Source: an uncultured virus (IMG/VR IMGVR_UViG_2061766007_000680)
Taxonomy: Duplodnaviria; Heunggongvirae; Uroviricota; Caudoviricetes
DNA: 64,000 nucleotides
Strand: one strand, 5' to 3'
Virus record (IMG/VR): IMGVR_UViG_2061766007_000680
The position numbers and the translations under genes were made by a program. Numbering within the stretch: the first letter of the stretch is position 1; each line of letters starts with the position of its first letter. Positions 4,110 to 42,528 of the stretch are shown here, one piece after another. The notes beneath the pieces were generated by a model. That model was not told the origin of the DNA and did no database searches. It saw nothing but the letters and a program-made list of their open reading frames with translations.

Positions 4110-4283
4110 ATGAAATACAGTGTACAATTTTACTACCACACGACAGTAACTGTTGAGGTAGAGGCAGAAGATGAGCAAGACGCTATCGAGACTGCATACT
4201 CAGAAGTATGTGATCCGAAATACGACGAACAGCTCAAAATGAATCTTACGGAAGATGGTGATCCGGACGTTGAGGAGATATGA
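4110..4283 (+). CDS. Small acidic phage protein (TVEVEAEDEQDAIETA)
   Basis: 57-aa ORF below the track cutoff; ATGA overlap with the next gene. Confidence 0.7.
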   Translation: MKYSVQFYYHTTVTVEVEAEDEQDAIETAYSEVCDPKYDEQLKMNLTEDGDPDVEEI

Positions 4284-6971: not shown

Positions 6972-7367
6972 ATGAATTTGGAATCAATAGATGCACTAAA
7001 GAGTGAGTTTCAAAAAGTAATGCACTCAGGAAGACACAAAATGTTTGTGTCAAGAACCGATAAAAATCTTGCTATAATCACAGAAGCGCTCATTTCGACA
7101 AATATCCTTGATAGATGTGAAGTGATTATTAGCCCAAATCCTGCTGAAGATATTGAGATCAATTGGTGATACCTGAGAAAAGATATTAGAATTATGACAC
7201 TCGATTCTTTGTATAATTTGATAGAGGCAGCAAAACTTGCTGGGCTCAGTTATATCTTTATTGACAAGACTGCTGAGAATATGAAATTGATGGACGGCGT
7301 CAGATCCTCAGTGTATCAAAAAGTTATCGGGCAAGGCGAACATGCTCGAATCAAAATCAGTTGGTGA
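6972..7367 (+). CDS. Two tandem small paralogous ORFs (6972..7169 and 7194..7367)
   Basis: Both are preceded by aagatattagaattATG and end in I-x-W. Confidence 0.6.
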
Positions 7368-19401: not shown

Positions 19402-19836
19402 GAATTAATATTATTGACAATAGCAGCAATCTTATTTTGCTTATTCATATATGTTGTTGTTAGTGAAATAGATAGACGTAACAATAAAAAAGCAAATGAC
19501 AAAGAAATGTTTGAACTATTGGAACAGTGGCCTGAGATAAAAAGTATGAAATATCTTAACATCACTGAGTTCAGCAAGAATGTATTACTACTTAAAGAGA
19601 AATTCCTACCAAATACAGGCGGAATAATATGGAAAGAAAACCATTTAAAAGGTAAGTATTTCGAAATGGAGTTTTGGGGCGAAACAAGATTTTATCCCAG
19701 CACTAATACATTTGGGAAATATTATATACCTTCTTATTATATACAAGATGATAAACAAATGCAAATATATTACATTGATATTTTAACAAGATTAGGCGAT
19801 TATATGTATGCTGTATTCGTAACAAACAAAAATTGA
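19396..19836 (+). CDS. Membrane-anchored hypothetical protein
   Basis: N-terminal hydrophobic helix. Confidence 0.75.
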   Translation: MKELILLTIAAILFCLFIYVVVSEIDRRNNKKANDKEMFELLEQWPEIKSMKYLNITEFSKNVLLLKEKFLPNTGGIIWKENHLKGKYFEMEFWGETRFYPSTNTFGKYYIPSYYIQDDKQMQIYYIDILTRLGDYMYAVFVTNKN

Positions 19837-19942
19837 TCAAAAAAAAAATAAAAAAAAATTACTTTTTATTGATATTTTTTAAATTATTTGTATATTTATA
19901 ATTGAAAAAGAAAACAAAACTATTAAATTAACAGAGAATAAC

Positions 19943-20029
19943 ATGATGAACAAGTGTTTCAAATATTACGGATTGAAAGGCGGCTATTGGTTTAGACGTG
20001 CAACTTGTTCTATGTGTTCTGTTAACTAA
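19943..20029 (+). CDS. Putative attenuator leader peptide MMNKCFKYYGLKGGYWFRRATCSMCSVN
   Basis: 28-codon ORF after a TTTGTATATTTA motif; its codons match the downstream tRNA set. Confidence 0.75.
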   Translation: MMNKCFKYYGLKGGYWFRRATCSMCSVN

Positions 20030-20054
20030 GCAGTAGGTTAGTAAATATATACAA

Positions 20055-20109
20055 ATACCCTGGGTAGATGGAAACATAGAAACAAAATCTTCTCAGGGTA
20101 TCTTTTTAA
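20055..20109 (+). terminator. Terminator hairpin (20055-20069/20087-20101, then CTTTTT) with an alternative antiterminator (20005-20023/20067-20085)
   Basis: ataccctgggtagat / atcttctcagggtat; ttctatgt / acatagaa perfect core. Confidence 0.75.
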
Positions 20110-20112
20110 TAC

Positions 20113-20195
20113 TGGTGTGTATGCAAGTGGCCAACGCGAGCAGTCTCCAAAACTGTGGACGAAAGTCTTCGTGGGTTCGAATCCTACCGCACCTG
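20113..20195 (+). tRNA. tRNA-Trp(CCA) with long variable arm
   Basis: gcagt-CTCCAAA-actgt anticodon arm, GTTCGAAT T-loop, G73. Confidence 0.85.
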
Positions 20196-20209
20196 CAAAA
20201 AAATGAAAA

Positions 20210-20262
20210 TTTTTGCTCCAAAATTTTTATAGATCAAAAAAAAGTTGTATCTTTGCAGCAGA
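20210..20262 (+). promoter_or_regulatory. Bacteroidota-type promoter (TATCTTTG at 20248) inside the tRNA cluster
   Basis: Same extended motif as at 2047 and 35720. Confidence 0.75.
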
Positions 20263-20273
20263 TTTTAAAAAAC

Positions 20274-20358
20274 GGGCAGTTGGTCGAGTGGACGAAGGCG
20301 AGACTCTGCAAAAGTTTATGGGGAAACCCACACATTGGTTCGAATCCAATACTGCCCT
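20274..20358 (+). tRNA. tRNA-Cys(GCA) with long variable arm
   Basis: gggcagt/actgccc acceptor stem, CTGCAAA loop, U73, tggg-gaaa-ccca extra arm. Confidence 0.85.
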
Positions 20359-20387
20359 CAAAATAAATGAACATTGAAATAAATAAT

Positions 20388-20482
20388 GGGAAGATAACGT
20401 CGGTGGTCTGTAACACCACTCTGCTTTAACAAATTGGCGTATTGGACTTTGCAGTAGGGGGGTTCGAGTCTCTCTCTTCCCA
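20388..20482 (+). tRNA. Atypical tRNA-Tyr(GTA)-like gene (no D-stem, ~37-nt variable region)
   Basis: gggaaga/tcttccc acceptor stem, gtggt-CTGTAAC-accac arm, TTCGAGT loop, A73. Confidence 0.55.
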
Positions 20483-20483
20483 C

Positions 20484-20682
20484 AAAAATCATTCGATAGA
20501 TATTTAATGATATATTAAGGGTTCGAATCCCAATTGGGGGCTTGTCGACGAACTGGTATGTATCTTATATAACTATACTCAAAGTCCCTCGCATTTTCCG
20601 AGTGTTATATAAGTAAGGTCGATTGTTAAGTGTTTATTGTAAAATCTGCAATTAGAGCGCTATGATTGTATGAATGGTTTTT
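20484..20682 (+). ncRNA. Unidentified ~200-nt structured RNA candidate
   Basis: Closing helix 20484-20494/20672-20682; 10-bp perfect helix 20564-20573/20604-20613; isolated T-arm gggTTCGAATccc. Confidence 0.45.
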
Positions 20683-20747
20683 AAGCACAATGGCTAGTGC
20701 GTCGGCCTTCCAAGCCGAGGATGAGGGTTCGATTCCCTTTATCTACT
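20676..20747 (+). tRNA. tRNA-Gly(TCC) lacking a complementary 5' acceptor strand (pseudo- or split tRNA)
   Basis: Perfect D, anticodon (tcggc-CTTCCAA-gccga) and T arms; 3' strand tatctac is unmatched by ggttttt. Confidence 0.6.
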
Positions 20748-20758
20748 CAACAATTATC

Positions 20759-20832
20759 GGGGATGTGATGTAGTTGGTAAGTCATGCGGGTCTGAAAAAC
20801 CCGAAGCGGTCTCTTCGATGAGCCTGTCCCCA
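20759..20832 (+). tRNA. tRNA-Phe(GAA)
   Basis: ggggatg/tgtcccc acceptor stem, cgggt-CTGAAAA-acccg; irregular T-arm. Confidence 0.75.
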
Positions 20833-21139
20833 CTAAAAACTTTTTTTCTTGGTTACAAAACGGTTGTTAGATACGAAGGTGTAGATTATAACGAGGACGA
20901 AGTTAATAACATAAAAGAACTTGACTTTACAATAGAGAATTTAAGAGAAAATAAACTAAATGTGAATATCGGACAAGGCTTAGGCAGGTGATACTAAACC
21001 GCAATCAGGAGAAATAATCACTACTTAGATGAAAGAAGAGTAATCAAGTTTTAGCAAATGTGTATTGTTTCATTTTTACTGAATTGGTAAAGTAAACAGA
21101 CTGGTGGGACGCGAGTGGATTACTTTATGTTTTTAAAAT

Positions 21140-21212
21140 GCGTTAGTAGATCAATTGGTAGATCGGCACATTGCCATTGTGCAGGCTGGGGAATCGTACT
21201 CCCTCTAACGCT
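21140..21212 (+). tRNA. tRNA-Gly(GCC)
   Basis: gcgttag/ctaacgc, gcaca-TTGCCAT-tgtgc, U73; T-loop ATCGTAC. Confidence 0.85.
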
Positions 21213-21233
21213 CTGAAAATCAATAAATTATTC

Positions 21234-21311
21234 GCGGTATTGGTGTAGTTACAGGCGCACATCACTCCTCCAAAGTGAAGGCATGCACGGATGGGATCTC
21301 CGTATACCGCT
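21234..21311 (+). tRNA. tRNA-Gly(TCC), atypical (C33, T-loop TGGGATC)
   Basis: gcggtat/ataccgc, tcact-CCTCCAA-agtga, U73. Confidence 0.7.
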
Positions 21312-21415
21312 CAACGGCAGGTTTGCATTGGAATAAACGTGTGGAAAATCCACTGCCAATGTGATGAAATAAGAGTAAGACTGCACAGACCCGTAGAAGA
21401 GTCGGGTGAAAATAT

Positions 21416-21489
21416 TCTCTCGTAACTCAACTGCATAGAGTACAAATTTCCTAAATTTGGAGTTCCGAGTTGGAGTCTCGGCGGGAGAA
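21416..21489 (+). tRNA. tRNA-Arg(CCT)
   Basis: tctctcg/cgggaga, caaat-TTCCTAA-atttg. Confidence 0.85.
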
Positions 21490-21576
21490 CAAACGAACTG
21501 AAAATAAAAATATTTTTTCTTTAAAAACAGTACGTTTTTAATACTTAACAAGTATTTATTATAAAAGATAAATATT

Positions 21577-22197
21577 ATGGTTAAGTATAGTAAAGAGGAA
21601 TTAGAGGATTTAATTTTAAACAAAAAATTAAGTTATGTTGAAATAGGGAAGACGTGTGGTATATCTGGAGGTGGTGTAAAAAAGTTAGCCCTTAGATATG
21701 GAATAGAACTTCCTATAAGAAGGAAAATAAATGAGAAAGAAACTTTTGGGAAGGGCAGAACTAAATACGAAAAAGGAAATTGTATTTATTGTGGCAAAGA
21801 ATTTGTGAAATATCCAGGGAAAACAAATCTTTTCTGTTCAAATAGTTGCAGAAACAAATATAAAGACCAAGAATATTTAAATAAATGGAAAAAAGGAGAA
21901 GTTGATGCTACGACAAAAGGGTTTACAATTTATGAATGTGTTAGAAGATACATCTTTGAAAAAAACAATAATTGTTGTGAATCATGTGGAAAAGCATATG
22001 TGAATCCTTATACAAATAAAAGTATATTACAGATACATCACAAAGACGGCAATTGTTTAAATAACAAAGAAGAAAACCTACAATTATTGTGTCCAAATTG
22101 CCACGCAATGACAGAAAATTTTGGGAGCAGAAATAAAAACGGTAACAAAGAACGTACAAAATATTACGGAAAAGACAAAACAAGATATAATAAATGA
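21577..22197 (+). CDS. HNH endonuclease (putative homing endonuclease) with N-terminal HTH and Zn finger, inside the tRNA cluster
   Basis: CIYCGK..FCSNSC, CESCG, LQIHHKDGN..NN..ENLQLLCPNCH. Confidence 0.9.
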   Translation: MVKYSKEELEDLILNKKLSYVEIGKTCGISGGGVKKLALRYGIELPIRRKINEKETFGKGRTKYEKGNCIYCGKEFVKYPGKTNLFCSNSCRNKYKDQEYLNKWKKGEVDATTKGFTIYECVRRYIFEKNNNCCESCGKAYVNPYTNKSILQIHHKDGNCLNNKEENLQLLCPNCHAMTENFGSRNKNGNKERTKYYGKDKTRYNK

Positions 22198-22266
22198 CAA
22201 CGAAAAAGAAACATATGAAGAAACCGTAATCCCACAACTTAATGTTTGTGGGGTTAGTAAAACATT

Positions 22267-22337
22267 GCTCTGCAAGCATTAAGGTGATGCACCATCCTTT
22301 TAAGATGGGGAATTCGGGCCAGTACCGAGGCGGAGCA
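22267..22337 (+). tRNA. tRNA-Lys(TTT), atypical T-loop
   Basis: gctctgc/gcggagc, ccatc-CTTTTAA-gatgg; T-loop GCCAGTA. Confidence 0.7.
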
Positions 22338-22345
22338 CAATAAAT

Positions 22346-22419
22346 GACCCCGTAGTTTAATTGGCAAAACCCCATACTTTTAATATGCGAGAGTGCAAGT
22401 TCGAATCTTGTCGGAGTCA
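22346..22419 (+). tRNA. tRNA-Lys(TTT)
   Basis: cata-CTTTTAA-tatg arm, GTTCGAAT. Confidence 0.85.
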
Positions 22420-22426
22420 CAAATAA

Positions 22427-22498
22427 GCCCTTATAGGTTAACGGTTAGACTAATATACTCTTAATATATGGATCTTGGTTCGATTCCAAGTGGGGGCA
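22427..22498 (+). tRNA. tRNA-Lys(CTT)
   Basis: atata-CTCTTAA-tatat, GGTTCGATTCC. Confidence 0.9.
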
Positions 22499-22512
22499 CT
22501 GGAAGAATATAC

Positions 22513-22588
22513 GCCTCGGTATGCAAATAGGTAAAGCAGCCAAACTCAAAATTTGGTGATTCTGTGGATTCGACTTCCACCTGGGGTA
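22513..22588 (+). tRNA. tRNA-Leu(CAA) with short variable region
   Basis: ccaaa-CTCAAAA-tttgg, A73, only ~7 nt of variable loop. Confidence 0.85.
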
Positions 22589-22598
22589 CAATATAATT

Positions 22599-22705
22599 TA
22601 CGCAGTCCATCGCGCCATTAAAGAGTGAGGAAGTTCAGGACACTTATTTGGGAGTGAAAGTCCAAGTATATATGGAATTAGGTACAGAATCCTGGCTATT
22701 ACGTG
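22599..22705 (+). ncRNA. Miniature RNase P RNA-like element (~107 nt)
   Basis: GAGGAAGTTCAGGAC and ACAGAATCCTGGCT resemble CR-I and CR-V and form a P4 helix with bulged U; P1- and P2-like pairings present. Confidence 0.6.
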
Positions 22706-22773
22706 TATTTTAAATCTCAGAAAAATCTGGGATTTTTTTGTATATTTATATTGAAACAAATGAGATTTAATAT

Positions 22774-25700
22774 TATGGCAAAATTAATTAATGTATATAA
22801 GGGTATGATCCTTACTCCAGAACAGGAGAGAGAGATGTTTGTTGAAACATTCAAGTATCTTGATAAGAAGTTAGAAAAATTTCTTTCAAGTAAGTATTTT
22901 GAAAAACTCTATGAAGAAGATGAGTTTATTGGTGCTGCAGTAGAAGATGCAGGAACTAGAGTTGCGCAAATGGTTGATTATTGCGAAAGAGGTTTTTGGG
23001 ATTAATAGTTATGTATATGGATACAAAAGTTAAGGTTGACACAAGTAGTAGTTTCCTAAAAAGAGTATTTGGAGTTACGTCATGGGAAAAATCCGTCAAT
23101 CCTATTTACGCAACATTCAAGGGCGGATTAGGAAAATACAATGATGACATGTCAGAATGGGATTATTTCTGTTTATGGGGTCATTTTCGTTTTTGTTACG
23201 ACAAAAAAAATTTAATTGACGGATGGACACATATTGGTTTACATGGATATAGAAATGGCTATACCTATACGCCAGTAAAAAGATTACTATGGCAATTTGA
23301 TTATCATTTTGCATTTAATAAGAAATGGCCGTTTATCAAGATTGGTTTCCACAGGATATGGCCGTTGTATGACAAAGAAAAATTTTGATCAGTATGAGTT
23401 TAAGTAGTGAGGATTGGAAACAGTACTACGACAGGTGGGCTGAAAGGATTTCTAACTTTAAGGATGTAGATGGCTTGTTTAAGAAAGTCATTGATAAATA
23501 CGGTAATAAAATGTCTGGAAAAAAATTTACCATATTTGATGTCTTATTTGAGTATGCTAAACGAAAAGGTGTTAAGGTTAGCGATGTTGATGAAGACGTT
23601 GAATTTATTGTGGATTTTATTGTAGAAGAATATGAAGTTAACAACTATAGAGTAGCATTATTTTATAGTGAAAATCCAATTATAATGATTAGTTATGGGA
23701 AAAAGACAACCGAATAAAAAATATCTTTTAGATAAACTAAAAGAGTTGGCACGGGAAGGAATGGATTTTCCTTCACATGATTCAAGTGCAGTTACGCATG
23801 TTGTACCAACAAAAAAAATTGTTAAGAATACAAGAATACTTGTTAATTCTTGTGATGATGACGAGTTAGAGAATTGGGATATTACTTTGTATGTAAATGG
23901 CTCAGTACTATTGTGTTATTACAAGAAAAACAGTATTAACTCTATGATAAATGTGGCTGAAAATGGAGTATCTGGCATTTTTGCATATAGGAATATATAT
24001 GAGCCAATGGAAGTTGGTATAAATGAAATTAATAAAATAAATGAAATATTTAAATTAGCAAAAGAACATGGCAAGTAAAGCACCAAGTACAAAGGCGTTA
24101 TTAAAGATATTCTGGATGTTTGACAAACATGGTTTAATTAAAGAAGATTTATGTTTTGATCCAGAGCATTTTATGGAAACCGTGATAAGAGAAAAATGGA
24201 ATAATTGGAACGAAGAAAAAAGATGTTATAAATATGAGTTGGAAGGGAGAGATTAAACAATTTGCCTGTGTTGATATAGGCGGTAAAACAGTACTTGTAT
24301 TCAGAGAGAAATATGTTAGAAAGGCTACTGCCCATAAAGTTCTGGATCTATTTCTGAACAATTATGAGAAATTAGATGACGAAAATAAGAAAACATATGA
24401 CTTTTTGATTATTGAGAAGAAAGGTCGCATTACTGCTAGTTACAAAAAGGGAAATCCAGAAAATGCGCCAGTTGTTTGGCTAAAGAACGTAGAGTTTAAA
24501 GATATCACTATAGCCGATACAACACAAGTAATAACAAATAAATATGACAAACCAATAATGGTTGACGCTAATAGTTTTACAGTACCATTTAATTCAGATT
24601 TTTACAATGAAAAATAAACGAGACTACGGAAGGTATTTAACACTTAAGTTTCCTGATTTAGAATCACCAAGCAAGAAAAGATTTTTTAACTCTCACGGAA
24701 AAGAGATTACAAAGCAGGAGGCAAAACGATTAAAAGAAATTGATGAGGTGATTGAGAAGTTACTAGCCGAAAAGGCTAAGATTGATGGGGAATAATTCAT
24801 TTTATTCCCCTAAAATTTTTATATTCGGAAAAATTATTGTATCTTTGTAGCGTAATGTGAAATTATAACATTATGGAAGAAAAAAAATTATGTGATAAAG
24901 AACGCAAAGTTTGGAAATCCTACGAAGACTACTCAAAGGAAAGGATTAACGAACTAGTTGATAGACGTAACAAATGGACGAAGAGAGTAAGAGATTTCTT
25001 TGTCTATGGTATTAGTTGGACCACACGTGAAAAATGGCGTAATATGAAATGGTATCTTCGAAACATTCGTAAGTTTTTACATTTGGCTAAGGAATGGCGC
25101 CCTTGGGATTACCGTTATCAAGTTGATCTTTTTAAATTCGGTTTGACCGAATTGGCTGATTATATTGACAAACGTGGCAACGAGGAAGATGTATCTCGCA
25201 CCAAGAAAATTGCAGCGATTACTAAGTTAATTGCTGAATTAGATCGTGATTATGAACATGAGGTATATGAGAAGTATCATCGTCACGAACAATTTGGGAA
25301 AGATGTTAAAAAAATTGTTGAATATGAAGATGGCTCAATTTCATTTAGTTTCAACGAAGACGAGGAGACTAAAAAGAAAAATGAGATTTACAATAAAGCA
25401 CTTATAAAAGCCAGAAAAGAGCATTACAACACCATATTCAAACTCATCCTCGGACAAGATAATGAGAAGTTATGGAAAGAAGTTGATAAAAAGTTTGCTG
25501 AACTTCCAGAAGAAGAGCAGAAAGATCCTCATCAGACAAAGCATTATAAAATTTATGCTCAATTGTTTGATGGCAGTGGAATTGAAGGTTGGTGGGATTA
25601 ATTATGGATATTATTAGTTATAACACATATAAAAAAAGATATAACCCACAGATTTATTATGTCCGTGATGGAATAAAAGGGTGGGCAAAGCAAACTGTAA

Positions 25701-41812: not shown

Positions 41813-42528
41813 TTTTTCTTCCCCAAAATTTTTATAAATGAAAAAAATGTTGTACCTTTGCGGCAGATTTAAAATTTGACACGTATGAGAAGAACCGAAA
41901 ATTTTAAAAAAGAACTTATTCCTATCAAAAAAGGCTTAATGCGAGAAATTGCTTCGTTGCTCTTAAACGGACGTTTCGATATGGCGAAAGAGACGCCTAT
42001 CTACTACTACGATGGCGATTCTATTGGAGGACCAATAAGAATTTCATTCAATTATATTGAAGGCGATGAAAATGAAATCAAACTCAGACGTTTAGATATG
42101 CCATTCGCTTGTCAGATTAGTTTTGATGTCGAAGAGAACATTACAACAGGTATTGTTTCTGGTGAGATAATGTTTCTTTCGAAGTTACTTGATTACATGG
42201 AGTTGGACCGAAAAGGTATAATTTAAAAATATGTTTATGAATAAATTATACAAAGAGGGGTATGTCATCGAAATAAATGACACCATAAATAACAAAGTGC
42301 TTTATTACCATCACACTGGATATCTTGGGCTTTACGAGACATACCATACAACCGACACACCTCTTGAAGCAGAAGTATTTAAAACCAAAAAAGAAGCATT
42401 AGAGGCCAAAAATAGTATGTATCGTAGATACCCTAAAAAAGATACTGGATATTGCTATAAAATTCGCTTTATTCGAATTAATATGTATTATGAATTTCCA
42501 AAGTATTAACATTTAAAAAAAATATAAT

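Follow-up and report, generated by a model that had tools for sequence, protein, structure and literature searches.

A candidate leader-peptide attenuator ahead of a tRNA gene cluster in a large uncultured phage

Introduction

Why phages carry transfer RNA (tRNA) genes, and when these genes are used, has been debated for decades, according to PMC10264068. The question takes a concrete form in the uncultured member of the Caudoviricetes recorded in IMG/VR as IMGVR_UViG_2061766007_000680, of which a stretch of 64,000 nucleotides (nt), hereafter the window, was analysed: what is the role of a 28-codon open reading frame (ORF) and a terminator-like hairpin that lie immediately before a tRNA-Trp gene, the first of a cluster of tRNA genes? 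A preliminary description of this locus took the ORF for a leader peptide whose codons mirror the tRNAs behind it. The evidence presented here leads us to assign a probability of roughly 0.55 to a ribosome-mediated (leader-peptide) transcription attenuator, which would sense tRNA supply through the speed at which the codons served by the cluster are decoded. In our best reading, this attenuator gates tRNA-Trp and supplements a promoter (P2) found just beyond that gene, and the phage probably makes extra tRNA when ribosomes read the cluster codons slowly.

The window belongs to a large, AT-rich phage (34% GC) in which every long ORF lies on the plus strand. Its sole near relative in the collections searched is a 121-kb IMG/VR contig, denoted here G001, whose CheckV completeness of 32% suggests a phage genome of several hundred kb, and the DNA runs that contain the stretch of interest are bovine-gut metagenomes. 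G001 contains two tRNA clusters. The one shared with the window will be referred to as cluster 2, preceded by leader 2, and the other one as cluster 1, preceded by leader 1.

A Small ORF Rich in Codons Read by the Downstream tRNAs

19943-20029, plus strand: leader ORF, with ATG start, 28 codons and a TAA stop codon (20027-20029), encoding the peptide MMNKCFKYYGLKGGYWFRRATCSMCSVN
19952-19993, plus strand: run of 14 putative control codons (codons 4-17), for Lys, Cys, Phe, Tyr, Gly, Leu (TTG) and Trp

Both the coordinates of the ORF and the identity of codons 4-17 were reproduced exactly as originally given. The 15 codons that can be read by the tRNAs of the cluster represent 31.5% of the 14,306 codons found in the 80 long ORFs of the window, and they account for 16 of the 28 codons in the leader (binomial tail 0.004). 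The probability of a run of at least 14 such codons within 28, assuming independent draws, is 1e-6. When compared with the 453 small ATG ORFs (15-45 codons, six frames) of the window, the leader ranks first, the runner-up having a run of 7. The putative control codons match what the regulated genes supply across this 14-codon run, partly by means of two atypical tRNA-like genes, and the agreement is mostly at the level of the amino acid, the single Leu codon, TTG, being the sole codon-level information.

The ORF is open in the three genomes in which it was found, namely the window, G001 and a 501-nt DNA contig from run X7. Conservation of the ORF was a point on which the preliminary description had been prepared to stand or fall: the frame is intact in G001, where 84 of 87 nt are identical and the three substitutions comprise one synonymous change plus Y9N and A20S. 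The X7 contig, in turn, holds positions 19868-20106 with 2 differences, neither of them listed inside the ORF.

A Predicted Terminator and Its Alternative Helices

20055-20107, plus strand: predicted intrinsic terminator, a 14-pair hairpin (20055-20101) followed by C and T5
19930-19955, plus strand: region 1, the 5' strand of a predicted anti-antiterminator, which contains the start codon
20003-20038, plus strand: region 2, composed of the distal part of the ORF, the stop codon and 9 nt past it, with regions 1 and 3 as alternative partners
20057-20085, plus strand: region 3, the 5' strand and loop of the terminator, predicted to be the antiterminator partner of region 2
20113-20196, plus strand: tRNA-Trp(CCA), 84 nt with a long variable arm, called by ARAGORN (Rfam tRNA model, 34.8 bits)

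The hairpin previously proposed just ahead of tRNA-Trp was recovered by folding, with an energy of -18 kcal/mol (z = -4.3; 0 of 200 shuffled sequences were as good), and a dedicated scan identified it as the strongest combination of hairpin and T-tract on the plus strand of the window (-17.3). The T-tract occupies 20103-20107, so that tRNA-Trp starts 6 nt after the putative end of the transcript. In G001, the hairpin shows a single change, located in the loop, and the tRNA-Trp sequence, as read from both genomes, is unchanged.

Beyond the terminator itself (helix 3:4), two further helices are predicted. The pairing of 20005-20023 with 20067-20085 that had been claimed for the distal ORF amounts to -13.4 kcal/mol, and it forms part of a larger structure: for a transcript ending at 20091, the lowest-energy fold pairs 20005-20038 with 20057-20085 (27 pairs, -29.6 kcal/mol), which occupies 12 of the 14 paired bases of the terminator 5' strand and extends well past the terminator loop. 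The 2:3 duplex alone reaches -20.4, a value equalled by 15 of 1000 dinucleotide shuffles; among 1196 other segments of the genome, 19 did as well. On the basis of this folding, 20005-20038 and 20057-20085 are predicted to be a real antiterminator. When the full-length transcript is folded, the lowest-energy structure pairs 19930-19955 with 20003-20023 through 19 pairs, with the terminator also formed; the energy of the 1:2 duplex (-20.3) was equalled by 6 of 1000 dinucleotide shuffles. The same switch folds in G001, where both substitutions that fall within the predicted helices preserve pairing: C19951T converts a C-G pair of helix 1:2 to U-G, and G20070A converts a U-G pair of helix 2:3 to U-A.

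The arrangement of these elements along the transcript deserves attention. The codon run ends at 19993, and the first antiterminator pair is found 12 nt later, at 20005, close to the start of region 2 (20003-20005). Given the usual size of the ribosome footprint, and with the run ending before region 2 begins, a ribosome whose A site holds any codon from 4 to 17 would leave region 2 free, and one positioned at the stop codon would cover it. The trp/his-type attenuator geometry that had been suggested for this locus therefore holds up at the level of prediction, as the putative ORF, control codons, terminator and antiterminator are all there, together with a 1:2 anti-antiterminator.

A Promoter-like Block and a Conserved Promoter around the First tRNA Gene

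19836-19912, plus strand: P1, a promoter-like block, with TTTG at 19887-19890 and the -7-like box TATATTTA at 19891-19898
20205-20262, plus strand: P2, a conserved phage promoter between tRNA-Trp and tRNA-Cys, with the -7 box TATCTTTG at 20248-20255

P1 matches 10 of 12 positions of a sigma-70-type consensus, the exact TAnnTTTG box being absent from it, and it is conserved in G001 from approximately the TTGATCAAAAAAAA stretch onward, with entirely different genes upstream. The -7 box of P2 is an exact TAnnTTTG, preceded by a long conserved upstream part, and corresponds to the Bacteroidota promoter consensus given in PMC7366714. The window contains 4 copies of the P2 upstream box and 6 of its core (at 2037, 20210, 35720, 41815, 48318 and 54678), and those at 2037, 35720 and 41815 directly precede protein genes. 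P2 is a general phage promoter, and probably a strong one, and its copies form a family of long boxes that are almost the same in sequence. Furthermore, its box is very abundant in rumen metagenome contigs (in run X4, 42 contigs carry a listed variant letter inside it), and this high degree of repetition suggests both a Bacteroidota host and a promoter class common to a group of rumen phages. P2 holds the sole exact -7 box located outside long ORFs and tRNA genes in the interval from 13 to 23.5 kb; no TAnnTTTG box occurs within 20030-20112, which leaves tRNA-Trp without a promoter box belonging to it.

An Unrelated Leader before the Other tRNA Cluster of the Relative

G001 provided a second, independent instance of a codon-matched module. 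About 35 kb upstream of cluster 2, and on the same strand, this contig carries cluster 1, with 20 tRNAs called by ARAGORN (24 at a relaxed threshold) that serve Met, Pro, Glu, Asn, Thr, Gln, Val, Asp, Ala, Leu(CUN), Ser, Gly(CCC), His and Arg(ACG), which is the complement of cluster 2. From the upstream gene to cluster 1, the order of elements is a P1-like box, a small ORF, an 11-pair hairpin followed by T7, and a P2 box. This ORF, MSRHNDQQTLCPASRALEL, has 19 codons from its ATG, or 29 from an in-frame GTG, and is unrelated in sequence to leader 2. In this case, a stretch located 10-23 nt past the stop codon mimics the 3' strand of the terminator and is predicted to pair with the 5' strand (-11.8 kcal/mol, a value reached by 10 of 1000 shuffles).

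The codon content of leader 1 is biased in the opposite direction to that of leader 2. The cluster-2 set accounts for just one of its 19 codons (binomial 0.007), or two of 29 when counted from the GTG (0.002), and only 2 of the 453 small ORFs of the window are as poor in this set. Comparing the two G001 leaders (15 versus 7 codons for leader 2, 1 versus 11 for leader 1) gives p = 0.001 by Fisher's test. The attenuator idea, unlike the alternatives considered below, predicts a pair of leaders that are unrelated in sequence and oppositely biased in their codons, each connected to a terminator switch ahead of the tRNA cluster that it serves. An additional hairpin within cluster 1 (7013-7058 in the orientation of the cluster) is accompanied by no leader-like ORF.

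Conservation of the Module and Search for Relatives

The module composed of leader, switch and tRNA-Trp is about 97% identical between the window and G001, in different surroundings: the upstream gene of G001 is unrelated to that of the window, the following tRNAs are much more diverged than the module, and the 5' leader of G001 carries about 60 additional nt. Over the longer P1-to-P2 block (19935-20489), identity is 86% overall. The X7 contig adds to the association with tRNAs, as a different tRNA-like sequence starts within 11 nt of its leader and terminator; in this contig the module is preceded, at a distance of about 64 nt, by a P2-like box.

Searches for more distant relatives were mostly negative. 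A back-translated pattern of the leader peptide gave no matches in viral contigs or in GTDB genomes. A shorter peptide pattern and a 21-mer from tRNA-Trp each matched G001 only in the viral contigs, and the same 21-mer retrieved from metagenome contigs two unrelated phage tRNA arrays (L003 and L004), both without the leader. The neighbouring 175-amino-acid protein, used as a query, yielded no relative. The exact P2 box was found in G001 and, as a chance match within a coding region, in one contig without tRNAs; in GTDB genomes 39 loci were obtained, none of them with the full P2 box, and a degenerate P2 pattern gave two further contigs of the same metagenome, both without tRNAs. A blastn search against phage records produced a single kind of match, that of a 100-nt Tyr-like element of the cluster to crAss001-like phages. 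As for RNA, the contigs of libraries X16 and X19 over 19700-20700 leave 19938-20107 uncovered, a neutral result given that contigs show neither transcript ends nor expression.

A Model for Attenuation of Phage tRNA Transcription

These observations can be integrated in a model in which transcription from P1, or from further upstream, would enter the 28-codon leader. A ribosome able to reach the TAA at 20027-20029 would cover region 2 (20003-20038) and leave region 3 free, and hairpin 20055-20101 would then form, the transcript ending at the T-tract, around 20107, 6 nt before tRNA-Trp. Should the charged tRNA for Lys, Cys, Phe, Tyr, Gly, Leu(UUG) or Trp become scarce, the ribosome would instead stall within codons 4-17, so that region 1 would be covered or held apart and region 2, freed by the stall, would pair with 20057-20085 as soon as these positions are transcribed. 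With its 5' strand taken, the terminator would be blocked and RNA polymerase would continue into tRNA-Trp and the rest of the cluster, adding to the transcription driven by P2. If no ribosome is present, regions 1 and 2 would pair and termination would follow.

The preliminary description went one step beyond tRNA supply and viewed the leader as a sensor of host tRNAs cut by anticodon-nuclease defence. This is plausible in view of the RtcB-type tRNA/RNA ligase encoded by the phage (37022-38365, PHROG E = 3e-93) and of published proposals on tRNA counter-defence, and it should be borne in mind that slow decoding of any cause would give the leader the same signal as nuclease attack. A broader scheme, which we advance tentatively and regard as somewhat doubtful, is that this family of giant rumen phages would split a near-complete tRNA set into regulons, each with a codon-matched attenuator that would top up exactly those tRNAs whose codon classes are read slowly, as might happen once a defence system has cleaved or depleted the tRNAs of the host.

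Evaluation of the Model and Its Alternatives

A substantial number of observations weigh against the attenuator. The most serious concern derives from P2, as anticipated by the preliminary description, which had warned of a second promoter near 20248: the warning proved well founded, as an exact TAnnTTTG box precedes all the tRNAs except tRNA-Trp. P2 follows tRNA-Trp by 50 nt, so that only this gene is strictly behind the terminator, and in cluster 1 of G001 it comes directly after the terminator of the leader, where nothing is strictly gated. Because of the position of P2, most tRNAs can be made without read-through, which would only add to P2 activity; the attenuator may become important while P2 is inactive, or it may concern tRNA-Trp only. 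The folding raises another difficulty. It had been suggested that transcripts with the distal ORF masked or free be compared: the antiterminator does appear in a shortened transcript, but the terminator forms in every full-length fold tried, with masked stretches or without them, so antitermination would have to be kinetic.

The codon match is also vulnerable. When the six frames were scanned irrespective of ORFs, a further run of 14 came up near 42398, in a non-coding frame of the minus strand, and consequently a fairer chance rate would be about 1 run per 128,000 codon positions. The earlier statement that all 14 codons are read by the cluster stands for the run itself, but the Tyr and Phe anticodons occur only in atypical genes missed by ARAGORN and Rfam, on which 5 of the 14 codons rest; with the codon set defined by ARAGORN alone, the longest run in the leader drops to 5, an unremarkable figure. 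For Arg, the leader uses AGA and CGT instead of AGG. Nor does the leader strictly mirror the cluster, as had been claimed: the run matches, but in G001 Y9N, the sole non-synonymous change within the run, takes codon 9 out of the set by turning it into AAC (Asn), the tRNA for which belongs to the other cluster of G001. As to leader 1, it was chosen by eye among three small ORFs in the G001 spacer, and its enrichment for codons of its own cluster is not significant (11 of 19 versus a 47% background, p = 0.22), significance being limited to its avoidance of the cluster-2 set. Finally, the module is known from three genomes only, which are nearly identical and, with one synonymous and two non-synonymous changes, do not make it possible to measure selection on the codons, and crAss001 has no leader or terminator between the promoter and the first tRNA of its cluster.

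The position of P2 behind tRNA-Trp, together with the possibility that the module is a small independent cassette, is the reason for not raising the attenuator above the value of about 0.55. Such a cassette would consist of P1, a gene for a small protein or a small RNA, and an ordinary terminator, with tRNA-Trp expressed by leaky read-through and the codon match being a by-product of a peptide rich in aromatic residues, Gly and Lys. The phage genome is organised in promoter-gene-terminator units, and a terminator followed by a promoter is normal punctuation in this genome, where TATATTTA/G boxes like that of P1, or P2 boxes, come after other terminators and P2 follows both leaders; a promoter-like block and a predicted terminator are both present, as an intergenic small RNA would need, and the peptide, conserved in three genomes, has three Cys. 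This explanation, which we consider unlikely while taking it seriously, leaves several facts without an account: the complementarity of the distal ORF to both the start region and the 5' strand of the terminator, the existence before the other tRNA cluster of an unrelated small ORF with its own antiterminator and the opposite codon bias, and the location of a tRNA gene lacking its own promoter 6 nt past the T-tract. Moreover, two of the three G001 substitutions alter the peptide, for which no homologue was found, since it matched no PHROG family and the phage tblastn search returned one match at E = 8. It is less probable still, and in our view quite improbable, that a structured 5' leader contains the open frame by chance and that the hairpin is an insulator shielding P2 and the tRNA genes, or a signal for processing of tRNA precursors. 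AT-rich DNA certainly yields many small ORFs, as the 453 of 15-45 codons in the window attest, an equally long run of set codons does occur in a non-coding frame, the ARAGORN-only run is just 5, and another conserved hairpin with a T-tract, that preceding tRNA-Gly(GCC), has no conserved ORF. However, at about 1 run per 128,000 codon positions, the placement of one in a 28-codon frame has a probability of the order of 2e-4, the ORF is intact in three genomes, and the second leader with its opposite bias is predicted by the attenuator idea and not by a chance frame.

An RNA switch independent of translation, binding either tRNA or protein (a T-box-like element or protein-mediated antitermination) and using the triplets as specifiers, would also account for the alternative helices and for a tRNA gene being the regulated one. 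No T-box or other cis-regulatory family matched at E <= 1 in 19700-22800, save weak off-target matches, and the absence of a covariance-model match led to the rejection of T-box identity; at the Rfam gathering score the window shows only tRNA. Neither a specifier loop nor a T-box motif is conserved, and the unrelated second leader shares nothing with the first except the architecture of ORF plus switch, all of which makes such a switch very improbable.

Relationship with Known Regulatory Systems

Leader-peptide attenuators are classically associated with amino-acid operons, such as trp and his, and include the multivalent leaders of thr and ilv. The phage element resembles them in its short ORF with control codons, its predicted helices 1:2, 2:3 and 3:4 and its putative intrinsic terminator, as well as in the siting of the stop codon, such that a ribosome finishing the leader would cover region 2. 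As in the thr and ilv leaders, several amino acids would be sensed together, and as in classical attenuators the switch would be kinetic. It differs from all of them in being a phage element with a tRNA gene, not a biosynthetic operon, behind the terminator, in the number of amino acids that would be sensed (seven) and in the presence of a probably strong promoter after the first gated gene. In E. coli, attenuation also controls an aminoacyl-tRNA synthetase operon, pheST, through the pheM leader. In this case leader-peptide attenuation is likewise aimed at the translation apparatus and not at amino-acid synthesis, although pheST/pheM senses one amino acid and regulates a synthetase and not tRNA genes. 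T-box riboswitches (RF00230) likewise sense the status of tRNA by choosing between terminator and antiterminator, but they do so through direct binding of uncharged tRNA, and no ORF is required.

Leader-peptide candidates at amino-acid operons in Bacteroidota appear in the accessible parts of PMC9723704 and PMC7366714, and phage tRNAs have been proposed, in the accessible parts of PMC10264068 and PMC11555353, to evade host defences that cut tRNAs. The latter proposals have in common with the leader described here that they give a reason for carrying backup tRNAs with particular anticodons; they concern the tRNAs themselves, and a sensor controlling tRNA transcription was not encountered in those parts of either source. 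A full-text literature search, the coverage of which excludes subscription journals, found no account of leader-peptide control of tRNA genes. A codon-matched leader would represent a built-in gauge of decoding speed, tying the expression of phage tRNAs to the tRNA supply of the infected cell, and would add tRNA genes to the amino-acid and synthetase operons on which leader-peptide attenuation acts. If separate regulons do exist, tRNA genes would become a new class of target for ribosome-mediated attenuation.

Organization of the tRNA Cluster

ARAGORN identified eight tRNAs in cluster 2, with specificities Trp CCA, Cys GCA, Gly TCC, Gly GCC, Arg CCT, Lys TTT, Lys CTT and Leu CAA. Genes for Phe GAA and Tyr GTA were called neither by this program, even at a relaxed threshold, nor by the Rfam tRNA model at its cut-off. 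The part of the cluster located after P2 spans 20274-22589 and is composed as follows:

20274-20359, plus strand: tRNA-Cys(GCA)
20388-20484, plus strand: Tyr-like element, conserved, with GTA in the anticodon loop
20677-20748, plus strand: tRNA-Gly(TCC)
20760-20835, plus strand: Phe-like gene, with the loop CTGAAAA, in a conserved element at 20759-20838
21140-21213, plus strand: tRNA-Gly(GCC)
about 21234-21312, plus strand: Gly TCC-like element, 91% identical to a G001 tRNA that ARAGORN calls
21416-21490, plus strand: tRNA-Arg(CCT)
21577-22197, plus strand: HNH endonuclease gene, within the tRNA cluster
22346-22420, plus strand: tRNA-Lys(TTT)
22427-22499, plus strand: tRNA-Lys(CTT)
22513-22589, plus strand: tRNA-Leu(CAA)

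The Tyr gene had already been flagged as atypical, and rightly so: although conserved and structured, it escapes both ARAGORN and Rfam. An acceptor stem and a T arm are present, the anticodon stem has 5 pairs and carries GTA in its loop, and in an alignment of three sequences (window, G001 and crAss001) 9 of its 29 predicted pairs are maintained through two-sided changes. It has no normal D arm, and a 6-pair helix encloses the anticodon arm. In crAss001, the equivalent element (4134-4240) lies in an unannotated gap between tRNA-Lys and tRNA-Phe, and the stretch of that record examined has no annotated tRNA-Tyr. The Phe-like element, as read from the sequence, has a loop with GAA and an irregular T arm, and its 80 nt recur in G001 with 100% identity, within a spacer that is otherwise not alignable.

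Several spacers of both clusters have features of their own. The spacer at 20485-20647, where no gene was called, is covered by contigs of two RNA libraries (for instance, a 335-nt contig with 3 differences) and may hold an unrecognised stable RNA, bearing in mind that contigs cannot demonstrate transcription. A second hairpin with a T-tract (21087-21133, hairpin 21087-21128) lies 6 nt before tRNA-Gly(GCC), and its stem is kept by compensatory changes in G001; a 10-codon ORF in front of it was considered as a leader and discarded for its lack of conservation in G001. Upstream of this hairpin, a block of 55 nt that is conserved ends, at 20958-20991, in the frame NVNIGQGLGR-stop (three Gly codons and AGG), which precedes the Gly, Gly and Arg(CCT) tRNAs, its distance to hairpin 21087-21128 not being conserved. 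In cluster 1 of G001, long, GC-richer and apparently structured spacers separate tRNA halves or tRNA-like pieces on the minus strand (about 11950-11610 and 10950-10650); these were examined for group I introns, and no Rfam family was found at the gathering score.

Lastly, both tRNA-Trp(CCA) (84 nt) and tRNA-Cys(GCA) (86 nt) have long variable arms reminiscent of class II tRNAs, and their discriminator bases read as G and T, respectively. Long forms were also called by ARAGORN in cluster 1 of G001 for Asn (87), Glu (88) and Asp (89), and a long-armed tRNA(CCA) is found in the two unrelated metagenome arrays, where it adjoins an ordinary tRNA-Trp in L004 and, apparently, in L003 as well.

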